Shown here: positions 1 through 15,297 of the stretch, piece after piece | Position numbering within the stretch: position 1 is the stretch's first letter | How the letters are laid out: each line of letters begins with the position of its first letter | DNA from: an uncultured Alphaproteobacteria bacterium | GTDB lineage: Bacteria; Pseudomonadota; Alphaproteobacteria; ATCC43930; CGMCC-115725 | DNA: 64,000 nucleotides | Reading direction: 5' to 3' | NCBI GenBank assembly: GCA_963773665.1 | Contig: CAVZBZ010000004.1 | Coordinates: 275,430-339,429 of the forward strand | Translations under genes and position numbers: made by a program | Notes under the pieces: generated by a model | Databases searched by the model: none | What the model saw: the letters and a program-made list of their open reading frames with translations, nothing else | Told to the model about the DNA's origin: nothing

Positions 1-998
1 CATGACGGGAAGCTCAGGAGAAAGAGCGCCGGCACCGCGAAATTGTTCTTGAAGGCGGCAAACCCGGCTGCGAATTGCGGCAGCTTGTCGACGCCGGCCG
101 CGATCGCCATGAACCCTACGAGCGCCAGAAGCCCGAGCATCAGTGAATAGCCGGGTAGAAGCGCGGCGTTGCGCCGGATCGCATGGCCGCTGTTCGCGCT
201 CAAGATGCCCGTGAGCGAGTGGGGATAGAGGAAGAGCGCGAGCGCCGAGCCCAGGGCGAGCGTCGAATAGACGCCGTAGGAGCCCCAGCCGGTGGCCGGC
301 GGCGCAGCCAGCAGCAGCTTCGCCTGCGGCACCGCGGCGAAGATCTTGCCGTAGCCGCCGAGTTCGACCGGTATGACGATGACCGCGGCGAATGCCGTGA
401 GATAGATCAGCGCATCCTTGACGATCGCGATCGCCGCCGGCGCGCGCAGCCCGCTCGAATAGGTGAATGCGGCGAGAATGACGAAGGCGATGACGAGCGG
501 CAGGTCGCCGACCCAGCCTGCGCCATAGACACCCATGGCGCCGATCACGACCTGCAAACCTACGAGCTGCAAGGCGATGTAGGGCATGGTGGCGACGATG
601 CCGGTGATCGCGACGGCGAGCGCGAGCCAGCGATTGCCATAGCGACCGCGCACGAAGTCGGCCGATGTGATGTAGCCGTGCTTGTGCGCGACGTTCCAGA
701 TGCGCGGAAAGACCAGGAACAGGATCGGATAGATCACGATCGTATAAGGCACGGCGAAGAACGCCACCGCGCCGGCGCCGAAAGCCAGGGCCGGAACTGC
801 GATGAAGGTGTAGGCCGTATAGAGGTCGCCGCCGACCAGGAACCACGTCACGACGGTGCCGAAGCGCCGCCCGCCCAGGCCCCATTCATGCAGTTGGTCG
901 AGATCGCCCTTGCGCCAACGCGCCGCGGCGAAGCCGAGCCAGGTGATGAACCCGAACAGCAATACGAAGACGATGAGCGCCGTCCAATTGACTGCCAC
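1..998 (-). CDS. sodium:solute symporter family transporter (N-terminal part; 3' end runs off the window)
   Basis: Absent from the ORF track because it has no in-window stop. My translation from GTG at 998 (GGAGGG about 7 nt upstream) reads VAVNWTALIVFVLLFGFITWLGF...GGDLYTAYTFIAVPAL... and stays open and hydrophobic down to position 1. It lies directly downstream of a DUF3311-type mini-protein, the usual partner of this symporter subfamily. Confidence 0.8.
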   Translation of the reverse strand, partial: MAVNWTALIVFVLLFGFITWLGFAAARWRKGDLDQLHEWGLGGRRFGTVVTWFLVGGDLYTAYTFIAVPALAFGAGAVAFFAVPYTIVIYPILFLVFPRIWNVAHKHGYITSADFVRGRYGNRWLALAVAITGIVATMPYIALQLVGLQVVIGAMGVYGAGWVGDLPLVIAFVILAAFTYSSGLRAPAAIAIVKDALIYLTAFAAVIVIPVELGGYGKIFAAVPQAKLLLAAPPATGWGSYGVYSTLALGSALALFLYPHSLTGILSANSGHAIRRNAALLPGYSLMLGLLALVGFMAIAAGVDKLPQFAAGFAAFKNNFAVPALFLLSFPS

Positions 999-1020
999 GC
1001 GACCCTCCTGTGCTTATCCC

Positions 1021-1236
1021 TCAGCGGCGACCGGATTCCGTGGCGAAATAGACGATCGCCGTCAGCACCGCGCCAATCAGCACCCAAAGAAGCTGATACC
1101 AATAAAAGAAGGGGATGCCGTGCCAGGAGGGCTCGGCCTTGTTGTAGAAAGGAGGCCACAGCACGACCACGAACTGCACGAGAAAGAGCAGGTACCACCA
1201 GCTCCATTCACGCGGCTTCGGCGTTGGGCTTTTCAT
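1021..1236 (-). CDS. DUF3311-like small membrane protein
   Basis: Internal ATG of ORF 1021..1320 (MKSPTPKPREWSWWYLLFLVQFVVVLWPPFYN...) with GGAGGGGAG upstream. Two hydrophobic helices. Positioned as the first gene of the symporter operon. Confidence 0.7.
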   Translation of the reverse strand: MKSPTPKPREWSWWYLLFLVQFVVVLWPPFYNKAEPSWHGIPFFYWYQLLWVLIGAVLTAIVYFATESGRR

Positions 1237-1575
1237 CCGGCGATCTCCCCTCCAACGCAGTTTATTATACTTGGCATTCAGACGACTTGGCCGCCCTGCC
1301 CGTCTGGCGGCGCATTTCATATATCATAAAATTTCCCAGCTCACAGCCCAGATTGCGCTGTGGTTACGAGCACGATGGTGCTGTCCGAGCGATTAGTTTC
1401 AGTCCGATTGCGCGCCATTCCTTGCGCGCCGCAGACCGCGCGCGTGCGCGAGGCGATGTCGCACGAGATCGACTCCTGCTTCGCGGACGAGGACGCCGAG
1501 CGTGTCATGCGCAAATTGGGCGAGCAACAGGTCCGGCGCCATCCGGCGATGAGCCGCGTGAACCGCGGCGTGTGC

Positions 1576-2007
1576 TTACGACTTGACCGCCGCCTGCTTG
1601 GCCGCCTCGAAGCGGCGCAGCATTTCCGCCGCCGTCTCCTCGTCGATCTCGCGCTCGGCGACGATGATGATCTCGCCCTCCTCTTCTTCGGCGTGCTCCT
1701 GCACCGCCTCCTCGAGCAGGGCGAGAAGATCGGCCTGCTCCTCGTCGTCGGCCTTGACGATTTCCGCCAGTAGCGCGCGCACCCTCCGATGATCGTCCTG
1801 CGCGCCCGTCACCTTGTCCTCCAGCGGCCCGAGCCTTTCGAGCACGGGATAAAACGCCTTTTCCTCGCCCTGCGCGTGTGCCTCGAGCGCATTCATCAGC
1901 TCGGCGATGAGCCGCGCCCGTTCGTCGCTTCGCTCGCAATCCGCGATTTTCTCGAACAGCGTATCGAACGCGTCGTGATCGTCCCTGATGGCTTGCCAGA
2001 TATCCAT
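1576..2007 (-). CDS. hemerythrin-like (HHE cation-binding) domain protein
   Basis: C-terminal 143 aa of ORF 1576..3390, starting MDIWQAIRDDHDAFDTLFEKI.... His/Glu-rich helical pattern. The rest of the 604-aa ORF is antisense to the LLM gene and is spurious. Confidence 0.7.
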   Translation of the reverse strand: MDIWQAIRDDHDAFDTLFEKIADCERSDERARLIAELMNALEAHAQGEEKAFYPVLERLGPLEDKVTGAQDDHRRVRALLAEIVKADDEEQADLLALLEEAVQEHAEEEEGEIIIVAEREIDEETAAEMLRRFEAAKQAAVKS

Positions 2008-2154
2008 TTGCCGCCTCGATGAAGCGGCGCCCGTGCGCCGCCTCAGGAGCAACGCCCATATCCCCGGTCCGTTCCTCGCCCGCGGCCTCGGGGTTTGAAC
2101 TCGGGCGGGCTTTTTGTCATTGTGCCGGAGCGAGGCCGCGCGGAGGATGCGCCC

Positions 2155-3327
2155 ATGAAGATCTTCAACTTCCACTTGATGCCGTACGCTGATGCCGATC
2201 TCGATGCGATCGAGAAGAATGGCTCGGCCTGGATCACCTTCTCGAACCGCAACTACGATCCGGTGAAGGGCGCCGAGCTCTATCATCGCTATCTCGACGA
2301 GCTCGAATATGCCGACAAGCTCGGCTTCGACGGCGTCGTCCTCAACGAGCATCACCAGACGGCCTATGGGCTGATGCCGACGCCGGGCGTGCTTGCGGGC
2401 GCGCTCGCGCGGAGCGTCAAGCGCGCGACGATCGCGGTCCTGGGCCGTGCGCTGCCGCTGCTCAACAACCCGCTCGTCGTCGCCGAGGAATTCGCGATGC
2501 TCGACAACCTCGCGCGCGGGCGGTTCATCGCCGGGTTCGTGCGCGGCATCGGCGCCGAATACCATTCGACCGGCATGAACCCCACGGAATCGCAGGACCG
2601 GTTCAACGAGGCGCACGATCTCATCATCCGCGCGTGGACCGAGCCGGGGCCGTTCCGCTATGCCGGCCGCCATTACCGCTTCGAATACGTCAATCCCTGG
2701 CCGCGCCCGTACCAGAATCCGCATCCGCCGATCTGGATCCCCTCGCAAGGATCGAGCTCGACGATCAAGTGGGCGGCCAAGATGCGCTACACCTATTGCC
2801 AGACGCTGAGCCCGATCGCGGCGGTCGCGCGCTTCTTCCAGATGTATCGCGACGAGGCCGAGAAATCGGGCTATCAGGCCACGCCCGATCAGCTCGCCTG
2901 GTCGAACTCGATCTATGTCGCCGAGACCGACGCGAAGGCGATCCGCGAGGCGAAGCCGCATCTCGAGGCGCTCGCCAACCGCTTCCTCAAGATGCCGACC
3001 GAGATGCTGCTGCCGCCGGGCTATACCAGCAACGAGTCGCTGAAGCGCATCCGCGCCGTCAAGACCACCGGCAAGCCGCAGACCGCCGAGGACTTGGTCA
3101 AGATGGGCGTCGTCATCGTCGGCAGCCCGGCGACGGTGCGCGAGAAGCTCGCCGAGTACCAGGACCTCGCCGGCTTCAACACGTCGCTCACCAAGACCCA
3201 GTTCGGGACATTGCCCGCCGACATGGTGAAGGCGAATCAGGAAGCGATCGCGGCCGAAATCCTGCCCTATTTCCGCGACCGCGTGCCCGCCAAGGCGCAG
3301 CCGGCCGCTGTTGCTGCAGCGCAATAA
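2155..3327 (+). CDS. LLM-class (luciferase-like) flavin-dependent oxidoreductase
   Basis: MKIFNFHLMPY...VVLNEHHQTAYG...FIAGFVRG pattern. The ATG at 2155 is preceded by GGAGGA. Confidence 0.85.
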   Translation: MKIFNFHLMPYADADLDAIEKNGSAWITFSNRNYDPVKGAELYHRYLDELEYADKLGFDGVVLNEHHQTAYGLMPTPGVLAGALARSVKRATIAVLGRALPLLNNPLVVAEEFAMLDNLARGRFIAGFVRGIGAEYHSTGMNPTESQDRFNEAHDLIIRAWTEPGPFRYAGRHYRFEYVNPWPRPYQNPHPPIWIPSQGSSSTIKWAAKMRYTYCQTLSPIAAVARFFQMYRDEAEKSGYQATPDQLAWSNSIYVAETDAKAIREAKPHLEALANRFLKMPTEMLLPPGYTSNESLKRIRAVKTTGKPQTAEDLVKMGVVIVGSPATVREKLAEYQDLAGFNTSLTKTQFGTLPADMVKANQEAIAAEILPYFRDRVPAKAQPAAVAAAQ

Positions 3328-3396
3328 AGGCGATGCATTGCTGACCTGCCGGGGGGTTGCTTGACCGGCGCGCCGCCGGCCGCGCATCATGCGTCC

Positions 3397-4605
3397 ATGC
3401 CGCGGCGCGAATTACGGGTCAATCTATTGATCTCGATGGGACACACGCTGTCCCATTTCTATTTCCTGTGCCTGCCGCCGCTGTTCATCGTGTGGCAGCG
3501 CGATTTCGGCATCAGCTTCGCCGAACTCGGCCTCGCCGTCGTGGTGATGAGCATCATGTCGGCCTCGCTCCAGACGCCGATCGGGTTCCTGGTCGACCGC
3601 TATGGCGCGCGGCCGTTCCTGATCGGCGGCACGCTGCTCATGTCGCTGGCGATCTCGGGCATGGCGTTCGCGACCAGCTATTGGCAGGTGGTGGCGCTCG
3701 CGACGGTGTCGGGCATCGGCAATGCCGTGTTCCATCCGTCCGACTACTCGATCCTCGCCGGCTCGATCGCCAAGGAGCGCATCGGCCGCTCCTTCGCGCT
3801 GCACAGCTTCACGGGAAACATCGGGTTCGCGTTGGCGCCGCCGGTCGTGGCCGGCCTCATGCTGGTCATGGGCTGGCGCGAGGCGCTGTTCATTCTGGGC
3901 CTTTTGGGCCTGCCGGTGGCGTGCGCCGTGATCTGGCAGAGCTCGATCCTCCAGGACGAGGCCAGGCGCGACAAGAAGAAGGAGGGCCGGCTCACGGTGC
4001 GCGACCTCGTGCTCGACCGCACCATGCTGCTGTTCTTCGCGTTCTATCTGCTCGGCTCGATGGCGGGGAGCGGCGTCCAGGCCTGGCTCATTACCGTGCT
4101 GCACCAGGTGAAGGGGATCGAGATCGCGCTCGCCTCGGCGGCGCTCACCGCATACTTGCTCGGATCGGCGGCGGGCGTGCTGTTCGGCGGCTGGGCGACC
4201 GACCGCGCCAAGTCCCATCGCCATCTTTCGACCTTCGTCATCGCGCTGACGAGCCTGTCGGCCGTGACCACGCTGCTGGTCGGCGTGACGCCGGTCGGAG
4301 GGGTCGTGGCGATCGCGATGATGTTCTTCTCCGGCCTCTGCCTCGGCGGCAGCCGGACGCCGCGCGACGTGATGCTGAAGGACGCCGCACCGCCGGGCGA
4401 GATCGGCAAGGTGTTCGGCTATATCAGCGCATCGCTGCCCTTGGGCAGCGCGCTCGTGCCGGTGCCGTTCGGGTTTTTGATCGACCACGGCCATCCCGAA
4501 TACGTGCTCGTCGTGGCCGCCATCCTGCTCGCCGGAAGCCTGTTCTGCATGGGCTCGGCCAAGGCCTCGATCAAACAGCGCACGGTGCCGGCGCCGGCCG
4601 AGTGA
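3397..4605 (+). CDS. MFS transporter
   Basis: About 12 hydrophobic segments and an MFS-type loop (FLVDRYGARP). The start could be TTG 3361 or ATG 3397. Confidence 0.85.
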   Translation: MPRRELRVNLLISMGHTLSHFYFLCLPPLFIVWQRDFGISFAELGLAVVVMSIMSASLQTPIGFLVDRYGARPFLIGGTLLMSLAISGMAFATSYWQVVALATVSGIGNAVFHPSDYSILAGSIAKERIGRSFALHSFTGNIGFALAPPVVAGLMLVMGWREALFILGLLGLPVACAVIWQSSILQDEARRDKKKEGRLTVRDLVLDRTMLLFFAFYLLGSMAGSGVQAWLITVLHQVKGIEIALASAALTAYLLGSAAGVLFGGWATDRAKSHRHLSTFVIALTSLSAVTTLLVGVTPVGGVVAIAMMFFSGLCLGGSRTPRDVMLKDAAPPGEIGKVFGYISASLPLGSALVPVPFGFLIDHGHPEYVLVVAAILLAGSLFCMGSAKASIKQRTVPAPAE

Positions 4606-4715
4606 TCCGGCATTATGCAGTAGCCTCCGGTGATGTTGCGCCGATGCTCGCCGTAGACGTACGATGCCCCCAAAACAACCGGGGGGCGTACCTCCCGCAC
4701 CATTGGGGGGACGAC

Positions 4716-5648
4716 ATGGCTCGGCCAAGGCCGTTTCTGTTTTGCCGATACCGGCTGCTCGTCAACGATGATCCGCTTAACGCACGCGCTCAGCTACAGG
4801 CGCTTACAGAGTTACAGGGTCAATATTTCGCTGCCAGCGCCGCCGCTGAGCGGCAAGGGCGACGCGACAGCGCCATATTCCGCGCGCGTACGCTCGTTGC
4901 TAAAGGCGAGCGCGCGATTACATGGTCCGTCGGGCGCAAGGTCGGCACGCGAATAACGGTCGAACCCAATGATGATGGCTCTGCGTTGCAAATGGGAAAC
5001 GTTCCGGACCGAGGCGTTCATTACTCGGATTTCGTTGCCATTCCTCGGCTTGGGGCGCTGGCCGTAGACGACCGTAGCGGCGAGCCGCATTTAGGCGGCA
5101 AAGCCGCGATCAATCGCTTCCAAGCTGTCTTTGAGCATCTTCCTGGCGCAGCATCGGAGATTTCGCAGACCACGACCAACGCGGAAGTTCAACGAGCGCT
5201 CAGGCGATGGCAGCTGACCGAATTTTCTTTCGTAGTTCGCCCGGCAAATCCTCATCCGCCCAGTGATCTATCGGAAGAATTGAGCGAGGAATATCGCAAG
5301 GATAGGATTGGGCTCGAGCGCGGGATGTTTCGTCCGCGTCCCGGAGAGCAGATGCGTCCCTCCGAGGATGGCCCGATTGCGGCTGTGAGAGAATTGGCTG
5401 ACGACGGGTATGGCCAGTACGCCTTCAAGGGCGTTACGCCGGATGGCCACAGCGCACAGATTAAGGCCCCGAAATTCGACGAAAGCAAAGCCAAGAACCA
5501 AGAGCGGCAGGCGCAACCTCGCGAGCTGCGGATCGTTATTGAAACGGACGTGGATGTAGATGACGCGGTTCTGCGCAATGCGATCACTGCGCTAGGTCCT
5601 GTTTACAAAGTAGCGAGACGTAGGCATCTGCGGATGGTAGCGAGATGA
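4716..5648 (+). CDS. hypothetical soluble protein (island gene A); native 3' end displaced by the IS insertion
   Basis: In-frame ATG at 4716 within track ORF 3357..5648, with a GGGGGGA Shine-Dalgarno sequence. Lower-G+C codon usage than the neighbours, no TM segments, and no family I recognise. The reading frame runs 57 nt into the IS. Deleting the IS restores ...NAITALGQFYG-stop, which overlaps the next start codon. Confidence 0.6.
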   Translation: MARPRPFLFCRYRLLVNDDPLNARAQLQALTELQGQYFAASAAAERQGRRDSAIFRARTLVAKGERAITWSVGRKVGTRITVEPNDDGSALQMGNVPDRGVHYSDFVAIPRLGALAVDDRSGEPHLGGKAAINRFQAVFEHLPGAASEISQTTTNAEVQRALRRWQLTEFSFVVRPANPHPPSDLSEELSEEYRKDRIGLERGMFRPRPGEQMRPSEDGPIAAVRELADDGYGQYAFKGVTPDGHSAQIKAPKFDESKAKNQERQAQPRELRIVIETDVDVDDAVLRNAITALGPVYKVARRRHLRMVAR

Positions 5649-6451
5649 AGGGTATCGAGGAAGGAGCGCGCGAGCTTGTCATATCGGGTGGCGATGGCGC
5701 GGTTCACCTTGAGATGGCCGATCATTCGCTCGATGCGGTTGCGCTCGCGGTAGATGCGTTGGTTCCAGCGGATTGCGTAGATGCGATGGGACCGCGGCGG
5801 GATAACGGCGCGGATGCCGCGTCGGTGGAGCGCAGCGCGGATGGGATCGGTGTCGTAACCCTTGTCGGCGAGCAGATGAGCCGGGCGCGCCGGAGCGCGC
5901 GCGGTCACGGTTTCGAAGGCCGTGCAGTCCGCCGCTTCGCCGCCGGTGAGATGAAAGACGAGCGGGATGCCGTGGGCATCACTGAGACAATGAACTTTAC
6001 AGGTGAACCCGCCCCGCGAGCGGCCAAAAGCCTGTTCGCGAGTCCCCCTTTTGCGCCGGCTGCCGAGACGTGGCCTCGGACCGTCGTCGAGTCGATGCTG
6101 TGGCGGGAGTTGTCCGCCATCGCCCGGGCCAGCCTGGAGGCGACCGCCTCCCAGACGCCGGCCTGGCTCCAGCGTCGAAAGCGTTGGTACACGGTGATCC
6201 ATTTGCCGTACTTCTCGGGAACATCGCGCCACGGCGCGCCCGTGCGCAGGCGCCACAATATGCCGTTCACAATGGTCCGGTTGTCATGCGCAGGCCGGCT
6301 ATTCCGGCCGCGCTCGGCCGGCAACAGGTCTTTCAGCAGCCACCACTCCGCTTCGCTCAAATCGCCTCGACTCAACGACCCCTCCTCTCCAAGAGGAATC
6401 CTTGAATCAGAAGGCGATTCCCGCGTCAATAAGTTTGTAAACAGGACCTAG
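5592..6451 (-). mobile_element. IS5-family insertion sequence (IS427-like organisation, two overlapping transposase frames)
   Basis: Perfect 18-bp terminal inverted repeats: ctaggtcctgtttacaaa at 5592-5609 and tttgtaaacaggacctag at 6434-6451. The outer CTAG (or its TA core) may be the target duplication. The transposase stop codon lies inside the left repeat. Confidence 0.9.
5603..6429 (-). CDS. IS5-family transposase, orfA/orfB joined by a probable programmed -1 frameshift
   Basis: orfA (5905..6429) reads ...LSRGDLSEAEWWLLKDLLPAE...NGILWRLRTGAPWRDVPEKYG. orfB (5603..6256) reads ...GRSRGGFTCKVHCLSDAHG...LLADKGYD...YRERNRIERMIGHLK. The frames overlap at gcAAAAGGGGGAct (plus-strand 6043-6054), an A-run/G-run slip candidate. 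Confidence 0.85.
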
Positions 6452-6460
6452 GGCAATTTT

Positions 6461-7069
6461 ATGGCTGACGAACCGCTCGAACGGCCACGGTTTCTGCCGT
6501 CGTACATAGACGCGGTTGCGCAGAGCGCCCGAAAGCGCGGATGGCGAGCGCTGTGCCCATCATGGCTCGCCGCGTGCGGTGCCGGCGCCGCCGCAACGAC
6601 CTATTTCATGCCATACAACTTTTGGTCAGACGAGCGCCTAGACGTTTCTGTCGTTGTATATATCGGGATTTTGACGCTGAACGGGTTGATTCTGACCCTC
6701 AGCTGGAACGCGTTCTCCCGCATCTATGAAGCCATTAGTTCGCCGCGATTTGCCTCTTATCTGATGGCCAAGAAACTGATGAACCGATATATCGTGTATA
6801 TCGGTTACGTGCATGTTGCGCAGCTGGCCGCGATCATCACAAGTGCTGCAGGGCTTCTGTTGCTACTCTGCTCGATTGAGGAAGTGGCATATAATCGAAC
6901 CGCTTTTGCCGTAATGATCGCGGCATCGGCTTACGCCATCGTTACAGCGGCGAGAGCTGTAGAGGTCGTCCACGATCTCATCTGGCAGAAAGCAATATTT
7001 GACGATTTTATCGCTCGCCAAGAGGGTAAAAACGTCGTGCCCTTTGGCCGCAACAATGACGCGGTATAG
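6461..7069 (+). CDS. hypothetical integral membrane protein (island gene B), 3-4 TM helices
   Basis: 202 aa. Hydrophobic stretches are VSVVVYIGILTLNGLILTLSWNAF, YIVYIGYVHVAQLAAIITSAAGLLLLLC and AFAVMIAASAYAIVTAARAV. A/T-rich codons. The ATG overlapped the ancestral stop of gene A (ATGGCTGA). Confidence 0.65.
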   Translation: MADEPLERPRFLPSYIDAVAQSARKRGWRALCPSWLAACGAGAAATTYFMPYNFWSDERLDVSVVVYIGILTLNGLILTLSWNAFSRIYEAISSPRFASYLMAKKLMNRYIVYIGYVHVAQLAAIITSAAGLLLLLCSIEEVAYNRTAFAVMIAASAYAIVTAARAVEVVHDLIWQKAIFDDFIARQEGKNVVPFGRNNDAV

Positions 7070-7419
7070 AGCGTCCCTATAAATCTTCGAGCCTCACGCC
7101 CTCCAGTTCCAGCGCCGCAATGCAGGCCAGGAAGAACGTTGCCGCGTGGAGAAAACTGTCACGAAGCGCATCAGCGCGTGCTTGCGGCACCGCGGCACCA
7201 TCGGAACAAGGGGTTACTGCGGTCGCGCGGCGGCATCGGCAACCGCATTGTCTGGGGCGTTGTTCCCAAGAGCGAATCGCGCGCGAGATTCGCACGAAAT
7301 TCGCGCATGCCCAGCATCGTGCCCGCGCAAGCCATTGATCCCGTTAACGATTCGCAGCCATGTTGCGGTGCGCCCGCGCGTGTCTATATGTCTTTGCCCC
7401 TCATCGTGGCGAGGGATGC

Positions 7420-8061
7420 ATGGACGCGACCTACAATCTCAATGGCGGCTTCAAGCCAACGACAAAGCGATCGGCCGATCTTGATGGCCCAGATTTCTTC
7501 CCGACGCCGAGATGGGCAACGCACGCACTGATTGACAACGAGCCATTTCGCGGCGGCATCTGGGAGTGTGCTTGTGGCGATGGCTCTATGTCCGAAGTTC
7601 TCGCCGAAACCGGAAATCCTGTCGAAAGTTCCGATCTATTCGACCGAGGCTATGGCGAGATCGGCATAGATTTCCTGCACACAACGCGCCGTGCGAAGAA
7701 CATCATCACGAACCCACCCTACAACAGCGCCGAGGGCTTCGTCTCGACAGCGCTGAAGCAGGCAGAGAACAAGTTTGCGCTGTTGCTGAGGCTTGCATTT
7801 CTTGAAGGCGCGAACCGGGCGAAGACGATCTTCCATGTCACGCCGCCCAGCCGTGTATGGGTGTTCAGCGAGCGCATCACCTTCTACATGAAGAATGCCA
7901 AGATCGCTGGCAGCGGGACAACCGCCTACGCGTGGTTTGTCTGGGACAAGCATCATACAGGACCAACCGAATTGGCGTGGTTCAAACCGGGATATAAGGC
8001 CCGATACAGCGGCACAACTACTTCTTCAGTGACTCGACAAGGCGCTTTCCTGCCGCCGTGA
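7420..8061 (+). CDS. orphan DNA N6-adenine methyltransferase, gamma-class motif order, very short target-recognition region
   Basis: Motif order is FFPTP (motif X), then ECACGDG (motif I, SAM pocket), then NPPY (motif IV). ATG at 7420 with GAGGGA upstream. About 213 aa. No restriction endonuclease gene is adjacent. Confidence 0.7.
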   Translation: MDATYNLNGGFKPTTKRSADLDGPDFFPTPRWATHALIDNEPFRGGIWECACGDGSMSEVLAETGNPVESSDLFDRGYGEIGIDFLHTTRRAKNIITNPPYNSAEGFVSTALKQAENKFALLLRLAFLEGANRAKTIFHVTPPSRVWVFSERITFYMKNAKIAGSGTTAYAWFVWDKHHTGPTELAWFKPGYKARYSGTTTSSVTRQGAFLPP

Positions 8062-8314
8062 TCTTGAACCCGCGATAGATTTCGACGGCTAATCCGGCTT
8101 TCACGAGCGTTTTGTGGCTCTTGAGATTGCGGACCTTCTGCGAAAATTTCGTATCGGATCGCTGCTCCAATATCTCGGCATCTTCGCCTTCTGGCTTAAA
8201 TTGCGAACTAAGCGCCTCAATGATTTCCGTCGTCTTCATCTCGCCGTCAGGGGCGTTATAAAGAAGCTCCAAAGTCGGGATCACCAGTTCAGGCTCAGGA
8301 ATGCGCTTGGGCAT
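8018..8314 (-). CDS. stand-alone winged-helix protein resembling the N-terminal DNA-reader domain of Mrr-type restriction enzymes
   Basis: MPKRIPEPELVIPTLELLYNAPDGEMKTTEIIEALSSQFKPEGEDAEILEQRSDTKFSQKVRNLKSHKTLVKAGL... matches my recollection of the Mrr_N pattern. GGAGG lies about 9 nt upstream of ATG 8314. The 3' end overlaps the methyltransferase 3' end by 44 nt. Confidence 0.55.
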   Translation of the reverse strand: MPKRIPEPELVIPTLELLYNAPDGEMKTTEIIEALSSQFKPEGEDAEILEQRSDTKFSQKVRNLKSHKTLVKAGLAVEIYRGFKITAAGKRLVESLKK

Positions 8315-8425
8315 ATGCTTCATCCTCCACCCCACCGGGCGGCGCGACTCATGCCTCAGGCAGTCCCCTCAAGTCAAACCGGAGACTGCTATCTAATGCC
8401 AGAATAATCGGCCAGCGCAGCCCGC

Positions 8426-9307
8426 CTATTCGGCGGCGACCGCCGTGACGCCGCTTTTCCCGCTCTCGAGGCCGCGCAGATCGGGCAGGCCCAGATGCAG
8501 CATCTCGACCGGCTCGCGCGCGACGATGGCCGCGCGCTCGCCGTGCTGGAGATAGATCGTGGTGAGCGCTTGCAGCGTTTCCCCCGCCACGGTTCCGGCG
8601 CCCTTCAGAACGACGTAGATGCCGCGCCCCTCGGCCGCGAAGGTGGCACCCGGATCGAGCCGCAGGAAACGGGCCGAGCTGCGCCGCTCGGTGAAGGTGC
8701 CGACGAATTTCTCGGCGACGCCCGGCGCGCCCTCGACCGGCACCCACTCGAAATGTGCGGGGTCCATCATGAAGGGGCGCGAATAGCGCGCCTGCGGATA
8801 GGTCATCGGCCGCTTGTTGGCGTGTTCCCAGATCGCCTGATAGCCGTCCACGTTGCGCTTGCCGGGAACGTCGTGGTGGCGGCGGAACACGCCGTCCTTG
8901 AACTCGCCCTCCGAGCGGAGCGCGTCCATGCCGGCCTTCACTTCGTTGCGCGAGAGATAGCCGCTGCCGCTGGCGCCGCCCATTTGCAGCACCACGGTCA
9001 TCGGCGTGCCCTCGGGGTCCTGCGACTGCGGCCCGTAGGCCATGCCCTCGGGGAAATATCCGACCATGCCGGTCTTCATCTTGCCGTCGCGCGCGAAATC
9101 CAACTCGCCCGCGAGCTGAAACCGGATCTGCTCGAAATTATGCCGGTGGCGCGGCGAATAGAACGCGCCGCCCATGCGGCCGAGCGAGAGCTGGAAATTG
9201 TCGATGGCGCCCGGCTCGCCTTCCATGAGGCGGCGGAAATGGAACATGCCGCCGCGATGCTCGAGCCCGCGCTCCCATTGCAGCTCTTCGCCCTGCACGA
9301 TCTTCAT
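8426..9307 (-). CDS. cupin-fold protein (bicupin-like)
   Basis: 293 aa with SPRHRHNFEQIRF and a second beta-barrel half. GGAGGAAAG lies upstream of the ATG at 9307. Confidence 0.7.
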   Translation of the reverse strand: MKIVQGEELQWERGLEHRGGMFHFRRLMEGEPGAIDNFQLSLGRMGGAFYSPRHRHNFEQIRFQLAGELDFARDGKMKTGMVGYFPEGMAYGPQSQDPEGTPMTVVLQMGGASGSGYLSRNEVKAGMDALRSEGEFKDGVFRRHHDVPGKRNVDGYQAIWEHANKRPMTYPQARYSRPFMMDPAHFEWVPVEGAPGVAEKFVGTFTERRSSARFLRLDPGATFAAEGRGIYVVLKGAGTVAGETLQALTTIYLQHGERAAIVAREPVEMLHLGLPDLRGLESGKSGVTAVAAE

Positions 9308-9352
9308 CGCTTTCCTCCGCAGACAAGGACTTTGGCGATTATACCCGATTCC

Positions 9353-10516
9353 TCAGCGCCCCCACAGGGTCTTGCTGGCGAGCCGCGCGCCTTCGGCCAT
9401 GGCCTCGAGCTTCGCCCACATGATCGAGGGATGGACGCGGCGGTGGAACGGGCCTTGCGCGAAGCCGCAATCGGTGCCGGCGATGACGTTCTCGCGGCCG
9501 ACGAGGCGGGCGTAGCGCCCGATGCGCTCGGCCACCAGCTCGGGGTGCTCGACGATGTTGGTGGCGTGGCTGATGACGCCGGGGATCAGCACCTTGCCGG
9601 GCGGCAGCTTGACGCTTTCCCACACGCGCCATTCGTGCTCGTGGCGCGGATTGGCGCCCTCGATCACATAGGCGCCGGCGCGCACCTGGAGAACGAGATC
9701 GACGATGTCCTTCAGCGGCACGTCGGTCGTGTGCGGGCCGGGCCAGCTCCCCCAGCACACGTGATAGCGCACGCGGTCCTCGGGAATGCCCTCGAGCGCG
9801 CGGTTCAGGGCATCGACGTGCCGGCGCACCCAGGCGCGGTACTGATCGAACGTGCCGGGCGGCACCATGCGGTCGAAGGTGACCGCCGCGCGGGCGTCGT
9901 CGATCTGCACCAAAAGCCCGGCATCGACGATGGTCTTGTATTCGGTGCGCATCGCCGCGGCGATCGCATCGACCAGCTCGTCATCGTTTTTATAGTACTC
10001 GTTCTTGCGGTCGGGGATGACGCTCGACGGCGCCGCCACCGGCAGGAACCCCTCCTCGACGTGCGAGCCCGCGAGCGCCGCCTTGAAATTGTCGATGTCG
10101 CGCTGCAGCGCCGCCTGGCCGGTATAGGCGACCGGCCCAACGCATACGCTGTCGAAGATGGTGGTGCGCGGGTCCTGGGCGTCGAGCTCGGCATAGAATT
10201 CGGAGAAGCGCTCGCGGTCGGCGCCGCGCGCGTAGGGATCGGACTTGGCCGGGCGGCGCTCGAAGCCGGACAGGCGCTCGAGCACGTATTGCGACCAGCT
10301 GAAGGATTTTCCGAACTCGCCGTCGCTGACCACGTCGATCCCGGCCTCCGCCTGCCGGCGCACCACCGCGGCGACGCCGTCCTTGAGGCAGCGCCGATAG
10401 GCCGCGTCGTCATAGCTTCGCCCGCCCTGCTTCGCGCGCAGGAATTCGAGCAGCTCGGGCGGCCGGATGAGGCTTCCGGCGTGCGTGGTGAGGATGCGCC
10501 TGTCGCTCTTCTTCAT
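9353..10516 (-). CDS. cobalamin-independent methionine synthase II (MetE C-terminal-like) family protein
   Basis: MKKSDRRILTTHAGSLIRPPEL...VSDGEFGK...YHVCWG...AGTDCGF. This is the last 387 aa of the over-long track ORF 9353..11131. Confidence 0.8.
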   Translation of the reverse strand: MKKSDRRILTTHAGSLIRPPELLEFLRAKQGGRSYDDAAYRRCLKDGVAAVVRRQAEAGIDVVSDGEFGKSFSWSQYVLERLSGFERRPAKSDPYARGADRERFSEFYAELDAQDPRTTIFDSVCVGPVAYTGQAALQRDIDNFKAALAGSHVEEGFLPVAAPSSVIPDRKNEYYKNDDELVDAIAAAMRTEYKTIVDAGLLVQIDDARAAVTFDRMVPPGTFDQYRAWVRRHVDALNRALEGIPEDRVRYHVCWGSWPGPHTTDVPLKDIVDLVLQVRAGAYVIEGANPRHEHEWRVWESVKLPPGKVLIPGVISHATNIVEHPELVAERIGRYARLVGRENVIAGTDCGFAQGPFHRRVHPSIMWAKLEAMAEGARLASKTLWGR

Positions 10517-11226
10517 GATCTTTCCTCCTGCAATCCCACGAGCACGGCGAGGCTCTCGCGGTCGGCGGCGAGTGCCGTGCTTTCGCCGCGCCAGACGACC
10601 TGGCCCTTGTCGAGCACGAGGGTGCGCTCGGTGAGCTCGAGGGCGATGTCCACCTGCTGCTCGACGAGCAGCGTCGCGATCCGGCTTTCGCGCCGCATCC
10701 GCACGAGCGCCGCCGCGAGCGTGTCGATGATGACCGGCGCCAGGCCCTCGAACGGTTCGTCGAGCATCAACAGCTTGGGATTGCCGGCGAGCGCGCGGCC
10801 CACCGCCAGCATCTGCTGCTCGCCGCCCGAAAGCTGGTTGCCGTAGTTGCGGCGCCGCTCGGCGAGCCGCGGAAAGAGATCGTACACGCGCTCGCGCGTC
10901 CATTCGCCCGGCCTGAGCGCCACGCGCAAATTCTCGTCCACCGTGAGCGAGGGAAAGATCTCGCGCTCCTGCGGCACGAGGCCGAGGCCGCGCTGCGCGC
11001 GCCGGTGCGGCGCCGCCGAAGTCACATCCGCGCCATCGAAGACGATGCGGCCGCCGCGCAATTCGGTGAGCCCCATGATCGTCAAAAGCAGCGTTGTCTT
11101 GCCGACGCCGTTCCGTCCGAGGAGCGCCCACGAATCTTCTGAGCCGATGCCGAGCGAGATTTCTTCCAGCACGATCGTGTCGCGATATCCGGCCGTGACG
11201 CCGTCAAGGTTCAGCATGTCAGCCAT
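10513..11226 (-). CDS. ABC transporter ATP-binding protein, LivF-like
   Basis: Walker A GRNGVGKTT, signature LSGGEQQ, Walker B LLMLDEP. An alternative start exists at 11217. Confidence 0.9.
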   Translation of the reverse strand: MADMLNLDGVTAGYRDTIVLEEISLGIGSEDSWALLGRNGVGKTTLLLTIMGLTELRGGRIVFDGADVTSAAPHRRAQRGLGLVPQEREIFPSLTVDENLRVALRPGEWTRERVYDLFPRLAERRRNYGNQLSGGEQQMLAVGRALAGNPKLLMLDEPFEGLAPVIIDTLAAALVRMRRESRIATLLVEQQVDIALELTERTLVLDKGQVVWRGESTALAADRESLAVLVGLQEERS

Positions 11227-11974
11227 GCGAGCGCTTTCCGAGATAGACGTCGCGCACGCGCGCGTCGGCGCGAATCTCGGCGGGCGCGCCCTCGACCAGC
11301 ACCTCGCCCTCGACCATGACCGTTATGCGCTCGGCGAGGCGGAAGACGAGGCTCATGTCGTGCTCTATCACCAGCACTGTGAGCGAGGAGGGCAGCCGCA
11401 GCAGAAGATCGAGCACGGCGTGCCGGTCGGACGAGGCGAGGCCCGCCGCCGGCTCGTCGAGGAGCAGCGTCTTCGGCTCGAGCGCCAGCACGAGCGCGAT
11501 CTCGACGAGACGGCGCTGGCCGTAGGGAAGATCGGCGATCGTGCGCGCAGCGATGGCGAGGAGGCCAAGGCTGTCGAGACACCGCGCCGTGCCGTCGACG
11601 ATCTCCGCGCGCGAGCGGAGCCGGCCCACGATCATCTGGTCTTCGCCGAGCCGCGCCTCCAGCGCGAGCGCCACGTTCTCGGCGACAGTGAGCTGCGGGA
11701 AGAGCGAACTGATCTGGAACGTGCGCGCGAGGCCCAAGGCCACGCGCCGCTCGGGCGCCAGCGCGGTCACATCGACGCCGTCGACCCGGATCGCGCCGCC
11801 CGACGGGCTCAGGAGCCCGGTGATGAGGTTGACGAGCGTGGTCTTGCCGGCGCCGTTCGGACCGATGAGCGCGTGCCGCGCCCCAGGTTCCAGCGCCAGC
11901 GACACTTCGCGCGCGACGCGGAGCGCGCCAAAGCTTTTCGAGACATGGTCGACCTCGAGCGCGGGCGTGCTCAC
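11219..11974 (-). CDS. ABC transporter ATP-binding protein, LivG-like
   Basis: GTG start (VSTPALEVDHVSKSFG) overlaps the permease stop as GTGA. Walker A GPNGAGKTT and LLLDEPAAG. Confidence 0.9.
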   Translation of the reverse strand: MSTPALEVDHVSKSFGALRVAREVSLALEPGARHALIGPNGAGKTTLVNLITGLLSPSGGAIRVDGVDVTALAPERRVALGLARTFQISSLFPQLTVAENVALALEARLGEDQMIVGRLRSRAEIVDGTARCLDSLGLLAIAARTIADLPYGQRRLVEIALVLALEPKTLLLDEPAAGLASSDRHAVLDLLLRLPSSLTVLVIEHDMSLVFRLAERITVMVEGEVLVEGAPAEIRADARVRDVYLGKRSHG

Positions 11975-12981
11975 GCGCGGCCTCTGCCCCAGCCCGCGCG
12001 CGCGGCCCCGCGCTCGATGAGGCCGACGAGCCCCTGCGGCGCAAACCGCACCGCGAGGATGAGGACGATGCCGACCGCAAACAGCCAGTTGAACGGATCG
12101 ATCGCGGCGGCGCGGTCGGACAGCACCACAAACAGCGTGGCGCCGAGGAATGCGCCATAGAGGCTCCCGATCCCGCCCAGGATCAGCATGACGAGCACGT
12201 TGCCCGACTGCATGAAGGCGAGGCTGTCGAGTCCGACGAGTCTCGTCACCTGCGCCGATAGGCTGCCCGCGACCGCCGCGAACGCGCCCGAGATGACGTA
12301 GAGCACGACGAGACGGCGGATAACGGGCACGCCGAGCATGCGCATGCGCACCGGATTCTCGCGGATGCCGCGGATGGTAAGGCCGAACGGCGAATTGACG
12401 ATCGCTTTCGACAGCAAGAACACGACCGCCATGGCGGAAGCCGCGTACCAATAGCCGGTGCGGCCGGCGAGATCAAAGGAGAAGAGGCCGAAAATCGGTG
12501 CGATCTCGTAGCCGAAAAGCCCGTCGGCGCCGCCCGTGACCGGCTTGAACCATTCCGCGTTCGCAACCGCCTGGAGCAGCGTCGCGACCGCGAGCGTCAG
12601 CATGACGAGCGTGAGGCCGCGGGTCCGCAGTACGAGCGGCCCGGCGAGGAGCGCCCCCACGCCGCCCGCGATCCCGGCCACGACGAGCCCCGAAATCGGC
12701 TCGGACGTGACCTCGAGCGCCCAGAGTCCGGCGGCATAGGCGCCGATGCCGAAGAACGCGGCGTGGCCGAGGCTCGCGACGCCGCCATATCCGAGCGCCA
12801 AATCGAGCGCCAACGCGAAGATGATGGCGATCATCACTTGCGTGCCGAGCTGCAGGTAGGTCGGAAAAATCAAATAGGCGAGAAGCACCGCGAGCCACGG
12901 CAGCGCGTCGAGCCACGACAGTTTATGACGCGAAAACGCGTCCCGCACCGTCGCCCCGCGCATGGACGCAGCCTCTTCCAT
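11971..12981 (-). CDS. branched-chain amino acid-type ABC permease, LivM-like
   Basis: Only the C-terminal 336 aa of track ORF 11971..15360 are real (MEEAASMRGATV...LDLALGYGGVASLGHAAFFGIGAY). The start overlaps the LivH-like stop by 1 nt. Confidence 0.85.
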   Translation of the reverse strand: MEEAASMRGATVRDAFSRHKLSWLDALPWLAVLLAYLIFPTYLQLGTQVMIAIIFALALDLALGYGGVASLGHAAFFGIGAYAAGLWALEVTSEPISGLVVAGIAGGVGALLAGPLVLRTRGLTLVMLTLAVATLLQAVANAEWFKPVTGGADGLFGYEIAPIFGLFSFDLAGRTGYWYAASAMAVVFLLSKAIVNSPFGLTIRGIRENPVRMRMLGVPVIRRLVVLYVISGAFAAVAGSLSAQVTRLVGLDSLAFMQSGNVLVMLILGGIGSLYGAFLGATLFVVLSDRAAAIDPFNWLFAVGIVLILAVRFAPQGLVGLIERGAARAGWGRGRA

Positions 12982-13856
12982 CAGGCTGCGCCCCGCGCGA
13001 ACACCCCGTGCGGCCGCCACAGCAGCAGCGCGACCACCACGAGATAGATCGTGAACGCGCCCAGGGCCGGCACGTAATAACGCCCGAACGTATCGACGAT
13101 GCCGAGAAGAAGGGCGGCATAGAACGAGCCCTTGAGGCTGCCGTGCCCGCCCACCGCCACGATCATCAACACCGGCACCAGATACTCGAGCGCGTACCAG
13201 GGCTCGAGCGGAAGGAAAGGGCTGCCGAGGAAGCCGGCCACGGCGGCGAGCCCGCAGCCGACCGAGAAGGTGCCGGCGAACATGCGCGGCACGTCGATAC
13301 CGACGCAGCGCGCCATGCGCGGATTGTCCACGGCCGCCCTGAGCCGCGCGCCGTAATTCGTGTATTCGAGGATCGCCCACAGCACGACGGCGATCACCGT
13401 GCTCACCGCGATGATGAAGACGCGGTAACCGGAAATGGCGATCGCGCCCAAATGCATGTCCTCGGTCAAGCTGAGCGGCAGCGGCAGCGCGTGAAGGGCG
13501 GAGCCGTATGCCAGGTTCGCCGATGCCACCATCACGAAGGTGAGGCCGATCGTCATCAGGATCTGGCCGAGCTCGCCCGTGGCATAGACCCAGCGATAGA
13601 CGGTGCGCTCGAGCGCAGCACCCAGCGCCATGGTCGCCGCCGCCGCAAGACAGAGCGACGACAGCACGTCGAACCCCGCCCGCGCCACGAGCGCGAAGCC
13701 GATATAGCCCCCGATCATGGCAAAGCCGCAATGCGCGAGGTTGGCGATCCGCATCACGCCCAGCGTGATGGTGAGGCCGACCGACATGAGAAACAGGATC
13801 ATCGCATAGGCGATGCCGTCGACGAGAAGCGCAAGCGCCGTCGCCAGGAGCTTCAT
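12981..13856 (-). CDS. branched-chain amino acid-type ABC permease, LivH-like
   Basis: MKLLATALALLVDGIAYAMILFLMSVGLTITLGVMRIANLAHCGF.... Internal ATG of ORF 12981..14072. Confidence 0.85.
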   Translation of the reverse strand: MKLLATALALLVDGIAYAMILFLMSVGLTITLGVMRIANLAHCGFAMIGGYIGFALVARAGFDVLSSLCLAAAATMALGAALERTVYRWVYATGELGQILMTIGLTFVMVASANLAYGSALHALPLPLSLTEDMHLGAIAISGYRVFIIAVSTVIAVVLWAILEYTNYGARLRAAVDNPRMARCVGIDVPRMFAGTFSVGCGLAAVAGFLGSPFLPLEPWYALEYLVPVLMIVAVGGHGSLKGSFYAALLLGIVDTFGRYYVPALGAFTIYLVVVALLLWRPHGVFARGAA

Positions 13857-14103
13857 CAACACCGGGCCGCTCTCCCTCGCGAGATGAAAGACAGGAATAA
13901 ACGCGGCGCTTGCCGCGAACAAGGACCATCGCGCCGGCTTGGCGTCGGCCCCGGCACGAGCATGGGACGCGGCCCATAAAGTGGGCGGGTGGGACGAAAC
14001 GCGCCCACGCGCGCGAAGTTTCGCCCCTCGCGCGCGCGGATTTCGTTGCGGCTTTGAGGCCGGGCGCTCCATAATGGCGGAAAATCATGCGGGAGGAAAA
14101 CAT

Positions 14104-15297
14104 ATGAAGCGGACTCTCTTCGCACTTGTCGCGGCGTCGATCCTGGCAGCGGGCACTGCATCCTGGGCCGACGAACCGATCAAGGTCGGCATCCTCATCA
14201 CGACCACCGGTCCCTATGCGCCCTGGGGCACGGACTACAAGCAGGGCGTCGACCTCTACATGGCGCAGCACAACGGCAAGGACGGCAATCCCAAGATCGA
14301 GGTGGTCTATAGCGGCGACGTGGGCGGCGATAACCCGCCGCGCGCGCATCAGCTCGCACAGGAGTTGGTGGTGCGCGACCACGTGGCGGTGCTGGGCGGG
14401 CTCGAATTCACCACCACCACGCTCGCGATGGCCGACATCATCAATCAGGCAAAAATTCCGTTCGTGATCTTCAACTCGGCGACCTCGTTCGTCACCGACA
14501 AGTCGCCCTATTACGTGCGCCCCGCATTCAATCTCTGGCCATCGGCCACGATCGCCGCCAAATATGCGACCGACAATAAGAAGATGCACGGCACCATCGT
14601 GTCGGCGGACTATGCCCCGGGCAAGGACGCGATCGACGCCTTCACCTATGGCATGAATCAGGATGGCGGCGACGTCCTCGACGTCATCAAGGTGCCGATG
14701 GGCACCACCGACTTCTCCAGCTACTTCCAGCGCATTTCCGACCACAAGCCGCAAGTGCTCTACGTCTTCATGCCGGGCGGGCCGATGTCGGTGGGCATGG
14801 CCAATGGCTACGTCGAGCGCGGCTGGGCCAAGGAAGGGATGATTTTTATCGGCGGCGGCGTCAACGAACGCGACCTGCCGGCGATGGGCAACGCCGCGGT
14901 CGGCCTCATCTCGGTGCTGGCCTACGCGCCGTTCCTCGACAATCCGGTGAACAAGGAATTCCGTGCCGCGTTCGCCAAAAAGTACGGCAACAAGCTGCCG
15001 GACGACCTCCCGACCTTCGCGACGGTCGATGCCTATGACGGCATGGACGTCATCTTCCACATGCTGAAGGCCACCGGCGGCAAGGGCAACGGCGACGCGA
15101 TGATCGCCGCTGCCAAGGGGTATTCCTGGCAGAGCCCGCGCGGGCCCCTCATGATCGATCCCAAGACGCGGGAGGCAGTCCAGAACTTCTATGTGACGAA
15201 GGTCGAGCGCGAAGACGGCATCATGGTCAACAAACCGATCGCCACCTACGAGCACGTGAAGGACCCCTGGCACGAGATGCATCCGCCGACGCAGTAG
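14104..15297 (+). CDS. ABC transporter substrate-binding protein (Leu/Ile/Val-binding family)
   Basis: Signal peptide MKRTLFALVAASILAAGTASWA followed by the periplasmic-binding fold pattern (IKVGILITTTGPYA...). Confidence 0.9.
   Translation: MKRTLFALVAASILAAGTASWADEPIKVGILITTTGPYAPWGTDYKQGVDLYMAQHNGKDGNPKIEVVYSGDVGGDNPPRAHQLAQELVVRDHVAVLGGLEFTTTTLAMADIINQAKIPFVIFNSATSFVTDKSPYYVRPAFNLWPSATIAAKYATDNKKMHGTIVSADYAPGKDAIDAFTYGMNQDGGDVLDVIKVPMGTTDFSSYFQRISDHKPQVLYVFMPGGPMSVGMANGYVERGWAKEGMIFIGGGVNERDLPAMGNAAVGLISVLAYAPFLDNPVNKEFRAAFAKKYGNKLPDDLPTFATVDAYDGMDVIFHMLKATGGKGNGDAMIAAAKGYSWQSPRGPLMIDPKTREAVQNFYVTKVEREDGIMVNKPIATYEHVKDPWHEMHPPTQ

Follow-up and report, generated by a model that had tools for sequence, protein, structure and literature searches.

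Introduction

The described systems closest to the locus reported here are lambda RexA/RexB and the actinophage pairs Sbash gp30/gp31, CarolAnn gp44/gp43 and Butters gp30/gp31, each of which combines a cytosolic protein that has a reported DUF4747 match with a four-pass membrane protein and has been read as an abortive-infection system, depolarisation of the cell being ascribed to the membrane protein (PMC6426596, PMC6426606, PMC7542560). RexA has two domains and is structurally homologous to RdgC; it forms dimers and binds DNA non-specifically, and its crystal captured a closed state unlike the open, RdgC-like one (PMC11077077). In Pseudomonas putida, the chromosomal cryptic-prophage pair RexABpp (PP_5643/PP_5644) comprises a DNA-binding RexApp that, in excess, inhibits growth in a RexBpp-dependent manner (PMC12894663), and a 2026 survey of immune operons names a 'DUF4747/CarolAnn prophage system' (PMC13373217). 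Here we describe a pair of genes, A and B, encoding a soluble protein and a small multi-transmembrane protein, in a 64,000-nucleotide (nt) stretch of DNA (the window) from an uncultured Alphaproteobacteria bacterium (GenBank assembly GCA_963773665.1, contig CAVZBZ010000004.1, positions 275,430 to 339,429). We favour, with moderate confidence, the interpretation that A-B is a Rex-type two-gene exclusion (abortive-infection) module carried on mobile DNA, in which A senses and B collapses the membrane potential.

Results

Gene structure was examined from the DNA letters and the list of open reading frames (ORFs), and all window positions given below are coordinates of the whole stretch. Gene A starts at the ATG at 4716, preceded by the Shine-Dalgarno sequence GGGGGGA, and stays in frame through 5594 (..AITAL), where an insertion sequence (IS) interrupts it. 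Deletion of 5596-6451 yields ..gcgCTAGGGCAATTTTATGGCTGA, so that A ends ..AITALGQFYG* at 298 amino acids (aa) and its restored stop codon (TGA, 6466-6468) overlaps the ATG of B (6461-6463) by 8 nt. This restored junction is colinear, base for base, with the uninterrupted junctions of the two closest homologous loci, L021 (A 77% identical) and L001, both of which carry CTGA where the window has the CTAG target of the IS. An 8-nt overlap is shared with L001, L010 and L013, overlaps of 4-20 nt are found in four more loci, and in the homologues the ATG of B is embedded within the conserved Phe-Tyr codons of A (TTCTATG). B lies directly downstream of A on the same strand in all 14 of the 14 distinct loci examined, with A identities of 35-77% and with the stop and start codons of the two genes mostly overlapping. 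A search of species-representative genomes for related loci, made with a 20-sequence alignment, gave seven matches, all of them alphaproteobacterial or unclassified Proteobacteria metagenome-assembled genomes; the named carriers (Bradyrhizobium, Methylocystis, Methylobacterium and Beijerinckiaceae) are all alphaproteobacterial and mostly Hyphomicrobiales. A-B is a real, conserved and translationally coupled pair that has been split by an insertion sequence.

Neither A nor B had a significant match when scanned directly against Pfam, NCBIfam, PADLOC and PHROGs, and the lead to DUF4747 came instead from precomputed Pfam tags on the homologues of A, of which there are 73 among 5.8 billion proteins and most carry the tag PF15931 (DUF4747). 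Scanned singly, 49 of 65 A-family members match PF15931 (E<=0.01; best 3.6e-8). A hidden Markov model of the A family, run against 1.84 billion representative proteins, retrieved only 169 clusters at E<=1e-3, and the distant tail of that search holds two proteins, P0227 (56.7 bits against PF15931) and P0229 (30.6 bits), that lie above the DUF4747 gathering cut-off of 27 bits and were retrieved by the A-family profile at E about 1e-7 in 1.84e9 proteins. DUF4747 membership is thus found at the level of the family, through this reciprocal profile link, and not for restored A alone. On these profile comparisons, A is best placed in the DUF4747 superfamily, as a branch that is both rare and divergent. 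A profile search of PDB sequences with A returned noise only, and no match to A was found by tblastn in 50,697 phage genomes.

The AlphaFold2 (AF2) model of A has a mean predicted local distance difference test score (pLDDT) of 94.5 and a predicted template-modelling score (pTM) of 0.88. When this model was compared with the PDB using Foldseek, the first match was Escherichia coli RdgC (2owl/2owy; E 1.4e-5, probability 1.0, TM-score 0.43) and the next meaningful one was lambda RexA (8twq), at a weak E of 0.019, probability 0.69 and TM-score 0.26. Against predicted viral structures (BFVD), the model matched five uncharacterised phage proteins of 277-322 aa (E 1.6e-11 to 3e-8), and a 'recombination-associated protein' was also returned. 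The closed conformation of RexA can explain the low global TM-score between RexA and the A model, and A is predicted from its model to have an RdgC/RexA-type fold.

None of the 28 homologues of B carries a Pfam domain, and an exact-protein look-up returned no record of B itself. As judged from hydropathy and charge only, B has transmembrane helices at about residues 31-49, 62-80, 119-137 and 149-167, and four hydrophobic segments are present by hydropathy in 22 of 27 family members; the first helix is weak in the window copy (Kyte-Doolittle score 1.02) and clear across the family (mean 1.77). The charge pattern places the N-terminus, a central loop with five K/R and one D/E, and the C-terminus in the cytoplasm, a pattern also seen in RexB and CarolAnn gp43. 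The AF2 model of B is all-helical (pLDDT 84), and its Foldseek comparison with the PDB returned generic helical bundles only, with no specific structural relative. The most conserved motifs of the protein are N-terminal ERPKF, LSWNAFSRIYE where the second transmembrane helix ends, and HDLIWQKAIFD in a cytosolic helix after the fourth, all of them on the cytosolic face, and we infer that this conserved face is the surface that contacts A.

The GC content of the window between 4600 and 8400 is 50-60% as opposed to 65-70% in the flanks, an islet about 10 points lower than its surroundings, and A-B lies 7-13 GC points under its surroundings in loci L003-L008. The loci lie on mobile DNA or in defence-like settings. 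In Methylocystis parvus M6-2022 (L007, NZ_CP187161), a Mu-like prophage at 2764-15245 carries A-B between an IrrE/Peptidase_M78 gene and MuB/MuA; in L005 the pair lies in a prophage with TerL and a tape measure gene, and in L015 and L024 it lies in integrase-AlpA-primase islands. It adjoins an N6_N4 methylase fused to a restriction-type nuclease in L025, SocAB in L010, and a P63C gene and a transposase in L001. The original prediction, which was made from the window sequence without database searches, had proposed the IS boundaries, the 298-aa restored A and the 8-nt coupled junction, all of which are borne out by the restored sequence and by the uninterrupted junctions of L021 and L001; it was likewise correct about the foreign-DNA context and about the layout of a soluble protein with a small multi-transmembrane protein, B having four hydrophobic segments, and the conserved adjacency of A and B homologues that it pointed to was found. 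Its statement that neither protein could be assigned a motif or a system gives way to the placement of A in the DUF4747 superfamily with a predicted RdgC/RexA-type fold. The Foldseek comparison of predicted models that it suggested paid off for A, which matches RdgC and then, weakly, RexA, and not for B.

Two further observations concern other copies of this layout. The L007 prophage copy of A-B, at 8001-9504, is intact and would make a good experimental candidate. On a plasmid of Picosynechococcus sp. PCC 8807 (L020, NZ_CP016488; 3480-4879), a gene for a DUF4747-like protein of 284 aa is followed by one for a 177-aa protein with four transmembrane segments, and the two are embedded among dndD, genes for an HNH endonuclease and HigB, and the gene for a dnd-associated methyltransferase, so that the layout is also found in a defence island on a cyanobacterial plasmid.

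The element that divides the two genes has the features of the IS5 family: its DDE transposase is spread over two overlapping frames, its terminal inverted repeats are short and its CTAG/TA target is duplicated over 2-4 bp. It is a putative member of the IS427-like group, one of the ISfinder groups within IS5. The overlap of orfA and orfB, which encode the N- and C-terminal halves of the transposase, implies a protein joined by frameshifting. The terminal inverted repeats, 15 nt long and perfect (GGTCCTGTTTACAAA, at 5595-5609 and 6434-6448), give two matches in the window where 0.02 would be expected. The IS had no megablast match among plasmids, and a distant-mode search found only relatives at 65-70% nt identity, on alphaproteobacterial plasmids. 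The perfect ends of the IS, together with the intact reading frames, indicate that the insertion is recent.

The IS5-family element entered a CTAG 13 nt upstream of the ATG of B, an event that replaced the last five residues of A by 17 IS-encoded ones and shifted B 856 bp away from A; 856 bp with antisense transposase sequence now separate the two genes. The present A ORF retains 293 of the 298 native residues, so the insertion truncates A little, and in the family alignment the chimeric protein keeps L293 and lacks the nearly invariant F296. The damage done by the IS is mainly to the coupling and to this nearly invariant residue, and is not a gross truncation of A. The ribosome-binding region of B, which sits between the right copy of CTAG and the ATG and thus downstream of where the IS inserted, was spared. 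A promoter scan of 4400-8500 predicted no sigma-70-like site, for B or otherwise, and no outward promoter from the IS. Since the IS separates A from B, coupling is lost and this copy of the module is probably attenuated or inactive. A second case of an inactivated membrane partner occurs at L011 (9005-9496) and L012 (4600-5209), counted as one locus, where the B homologue is frameshifted and A is intact.

Whether the pair in this genome is now a decaying remnant without current function is, in our estimation, an even call. The IS divides the genes and changes the conserved C-terminus of A, the neighbouring DUF6471 gene is down to 21 codons and B has no predicted sigma-70-like promoter, all of which speak for decay; set against this, both frames are otherwise intact and align over their full length with the homologues, the perfect ends of the IS mark a recent event, and the ribosome-binding site of B is preserved downstream of the insertion point. 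Decay of this kind would bear only on what the pair does today, and does not conflict with the Rex-type exclusion function that we favour for the ancestral pair.

Beyond B, the window retains a remnant of a small helix-turn-helix (HTH)-like DUF6471 gene, and an intact DUF6471 gene lies convergent to B in L004, L010, L013 and L025, where it is followed by an IS1595-family transposase. Pairwise divergence is similar for A, B, DUF6471 and the IS1595 transposase (about 40-58%), which suggests that the four genes are an old block that possibly moves as a unit; a search for transposon-like inverted repeats around this block found none that were convincing. Further downstream, a phage-type DNA methyltransferase and a convergent, overlapping Mrr_N-like winged-helix protein occupy the same low-GC islet (Table 1). 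The methyltransferase is a neighbour of the A-B module and at most a candidate member of it. The second protein, called a restriction-type DNA reader in the original prediction, amounts to a sub-threshold Mrr_N match. The same convergent, overlapping pair recurs in L001 (14119-15103) at 77% aa identity, where it is inverted and the transposase and P63C gene stand between it and A-B. A 1013-aa ORF without a Pfam domain lies on the same strand about 1.5 kb upstream of A-B in two independent loci, L003 (3501-6542) and L023 (2441-5482). The high-GC flanks of the window give many long, spurious, overlapping ORFs (seen among the long ORFs in 1-14000), such as the 763-aa ORF at 3357-5648 on the plus strand, which runs out of frame over an MFS transporter gene and then in frame into gene A; ORF length by itself is an unreliable guide in the window.

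Table 1. Features of the A-B locus and its immediate neighbourhood.
Feature	Position	Strand	Basis
Gene A, codons 1-293 of the ancestral 298-aa cytosolic protein (DUF4747 superfamily, predicted RdgC-type fold)	4716..5594	+	ORF, Shine-Dalgarno, homologues, AF2, Foldseek
Chimeric present-day A ORF, 310 aa (293 native and 17 IS-encoded residues, GPVYKVARRRHLRMVAR)	4716..5648	+	Stop TGA 5646-5648
Left target-site duplication CTAG (or TA within a CTAG target)	5592..5595	.	Sequence; homologues carry CTGA here
IS5-family insertion sequence, 852 bp, perfect terminal inverted repeats	5596..6447	-	Inverted-repeat search, transposase matches, nt relatives
IS transposase orfB, DDE domain (DDE_Tnp_1)	5603..6256	-	PF01609 E 8e-15; NF033580 positions 107-258, E 3e-43
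IS transposase orfA, DUF4096 / N-terminal half of IS5_3	5905..6429	-	PF13340 E 2e-28; NF033580 positions 2-111, E 1e-37
Right target-site duplication CTAG	6448..6451	.	Sequence
3' end of gene A beyond the IS (..G QFYG stop), holding the ribosome-binding region and ATG of B	6452..6468	+	Restored frame; L021/L001 junction alignment
Gene B, 202-aa inner-membrane protein (predicted)	6461..7069	+	Homologues, AF2, hydropathy, charge, linkage to A
DUF6471 (PF20075) small HTH-like gene remnant, 21 codons	7080..7142	-	tblastn 81% identity, E 2e-6
Phage-type DNA methyltransferase, NPPY motif	7420..8061	+	phrog_799 E 8e-63; weak PF05869 Dam
105-aa Mrr_N-like winged-helix protein, convergent and overlapping with the methyltransferase	8018..8335	-	PF14338, 26.7 bits vs cut-off 29.5

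Discussion

A-B belongs to a class of gene pairs that combine a DUF4747-type protein with a protein of four transmembrane segments. We infer its Rex-like working, from dimerisation and ligand sensing by A through activation of B to depolarisation and an anti-phage phenotype, from the fold, the topology, the operon structure and the genomic context. By analogy with RexA and its homologues, A would dimerise and either hold nucleic acid in a clamp or detect an infection-specific intermediate, the signal being an infection-associated nucleic acid or protein. A would pass the signal to the conserved cytosolic face of B, made up of ERPKF, the beginning of the basic central loop and the HDLIWQKAIFD helix, and activated B would then dissipate the membrane potential such that growth of both the cell and the infecting phage is halted. 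The overlap of the stop and start codons would set the ratio of A to B, stoichiometry being critical in Rex systems. An abortive-infection role had been put forward in the original prediction as a candidate novel defence module; the role is a reasonable one, and the novelty does not stand, given that DUF4747-type proteins with four-transmembrane partners have already been described as Rex-like exclusion systems.

Several results weigh against this interpretation, the first group of which concerns sequence. In the Pfam scan, restored A has no PF15931 match at E<=1, and most A homologues fall below the PF15931 cut-off, the close ones that were checked scoring 14-25.6 bits. Neither A nor B has sequence-level homology to an experimentally validated system by hhalign, PADLOC or Pfam, and the PADLOC scan that the original prediction suggested matched no system at all. 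Compared with lambda, A has no match to PF15969 or the PADLOC RexA model (hhalign probability 0.2-0.3) and B has none to PF15968 or the PADLOC RexB model (hhalign probability 0.2); as a positive control, lambda RexA was matched at 1e-97 and 9e-110, and the PADLOC RexA and RexB models match lambda and not A/B. When an extended A profile of 71 sequences was aligned with a 27-sequence profile of the CarolAnn/Sbash/Sejanus gp44 family, which includes Sbash gp30 and Sejanus gp46, the hhalign probability was 0.06, another A profile having given 0.15 against CarolAnn gp44, and the B profile reached 0.4 against CarolAnn gp43. The second group concerns structure and precedent. The Foldseek match to RexA is weak (TM-score 0.26), and RdgC, a recombination protein, matches better. 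The published link of DUF4747 to RexA, gp44 and gp30 consists of weak HHpred matches (for example, probability 69 and E 140 for Butters gp30), and CarolAnn gp44 and Sbash gp30 themselves have no PF15931 match in hmmscan. DNA binding by RexA is not strictly needed for lambda exclusion (PMC11077077), which makes the sensing step uncertain even in the prototype, and we found no phenotype data for bona fide DUF4747 pairs in the literature.

A less probable reading, though one that deserves some weight, is that bona fide DUF4747 and four-transmembrane pairs form a lineage that shares only the ancient RdgC-type fold with the Rex and CarolAnn systems and has its own trigger and effector logic. Part of this lineage may travel as a co-diverging four-gene cassette of A, B, the DUF6471 HTH protein and the IS1595-type transposase, making it a self-mobilising defence cassette.

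That A-B is an addiction or toxin-antitoxin-like module, in which B is a membrane toxin restrained or triggered by A and the pair stabilises its element, seems to us improbable. The pair is always found on mobile DNA, near IS1595 transposases, integrases or the SocAB toxin-antitoxin system, it is as tightly coupled in translation as toxin-antitoxin pairs are, and Rex-type systems become toxic when their two proteins are out of balance; yet the fold of A matches DNA-clamp proteins and not known antitoxins, and the position of the pair in prophage immunity and early regions mirrors that of rexAB. In addition, the separation of the genes by the IS is tolerated here and A is intact beside a frameshifted B at L011/L012, which argues against a strictly required antitoxin.

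Slightly more doubtful again is the proposal that A modulates recombination, replication or transposition in the manner of RdgC, is tethered or regulated by B and serves a mobile element such as the co-diverging IS1595-type transposase. RdgC is indeed the structure that the A model matches best, BFVD offers a 'recombination-associated protein', and A, B, DUF6471 and the transposase have co-diverged in L004, L010, L013 and L025, with the DUF6471 remnant persisting in the window. Against this proposal, A has no sequence match to the RdgC family (PF04381), the transposase is absent from most loci, no transposon-type inverted repeats bracket the block, and RexA, whose fold is predicted for A as well, acts in exclusion. 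RdgC is, moreover, a stand-alone conserved chromosomal gene without a membrane partner; A, by contrast, always occurs together with B, on low-GC mobile DNA, and has a patchy distribution of 169 clusters in total. A defence system that is mechanistically unrelated to Rex and shares its layout alone, for example through Kiwa-like membrane sensing or some other effector chemistry, would account for the undetectable sequence homology to Rex and CarolAnn proteins and for the lack of a structural match to B in the PDB, but is just as improbable given that PADLOC matches neither Kiwa nor any other system, neither protein has an enzymatic domain and RexA probably shares the fold of A.

If A-B is a Rex-type exclusion module, the layout of an RdgC-fold cytosolic protein with a four-transmembrane effector would extend to soil Alphaproteobacteria, mostly Hyphomicrobiales. 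The reciprocal profile search ties this layout to true Pfam members of DUF4747. The Rex mechanism is unresolved after decades, and a divergent, well-modelled family whose membrane partner has conserved motifs on its cytosolic face could help to locate where A and B meet. The window copy, disrupted as it is by the IS, is of little interest alone, and intact prophage orthologues are now available for testing.

Among known systems, Kiwa (KwaA with four transmembrane segments and KwaB with DUF4868), which the original prediction had offered as an analogy, likewise combines a membrane protein and a soluble one; it is ruled out by the absence of PADLOC and Pfam matches for A/B, by its reverse gene order, where the Rex-type order is the same as here, and by the different fold family of A. 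With other DUF4747 and four-transmembrane pairs, A-B shares the reciprocal link to PF15931 and the PxNP and GYG motifs, which are common to the A family and the Picosynechococcus plasmid protein; it differs in that the window A and most of its close relatives remain under the Pfam cut-off, and in that no capK/capS regulator lies upstream. The actinophage systems CarolAnn, Sbash and Butters have the same two-gene operon with the cytosolic protein encoded before the four-pass membrane protein, and the frames of CarolAnn 44/43 and Sbash 30/31 overlap as those of A and B do, although gp44 and gp30 are about 370 aa long in comparison with the 298 aa of A.

Lambda RexAB may resemble A-B in the RdgC-type fold, which is predicted for A, and does resemble it in a membrane protein that, by hydropathy and charge, also has four transmembrane segments, both termini in the cytoplasm and a basic central loop facing it, in the order of sensor and then membrane protein, and in carriage on prophage or mobile DNA. 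The two differ in the size of the membrane protein (202 aa for B and 144 aa for RexB), in the spacing of the genes, which lie 15 nt apart in lambda and overlap in A/B, and in that the window locus is not beside a cI repressor gene. RexABpp was assigned to the RexAB type, and validated, on grounds very similar to those used here, a RexA-like fold and a four-transmembrane partner (PMC12894663), even though HHpred matches PP_5643 strongly to RexA (98%) and A has no such match by hhalign. By analogy with that pair, we would predict that A binds DNA and that an excess of A is toxic in a manner that depends on B.

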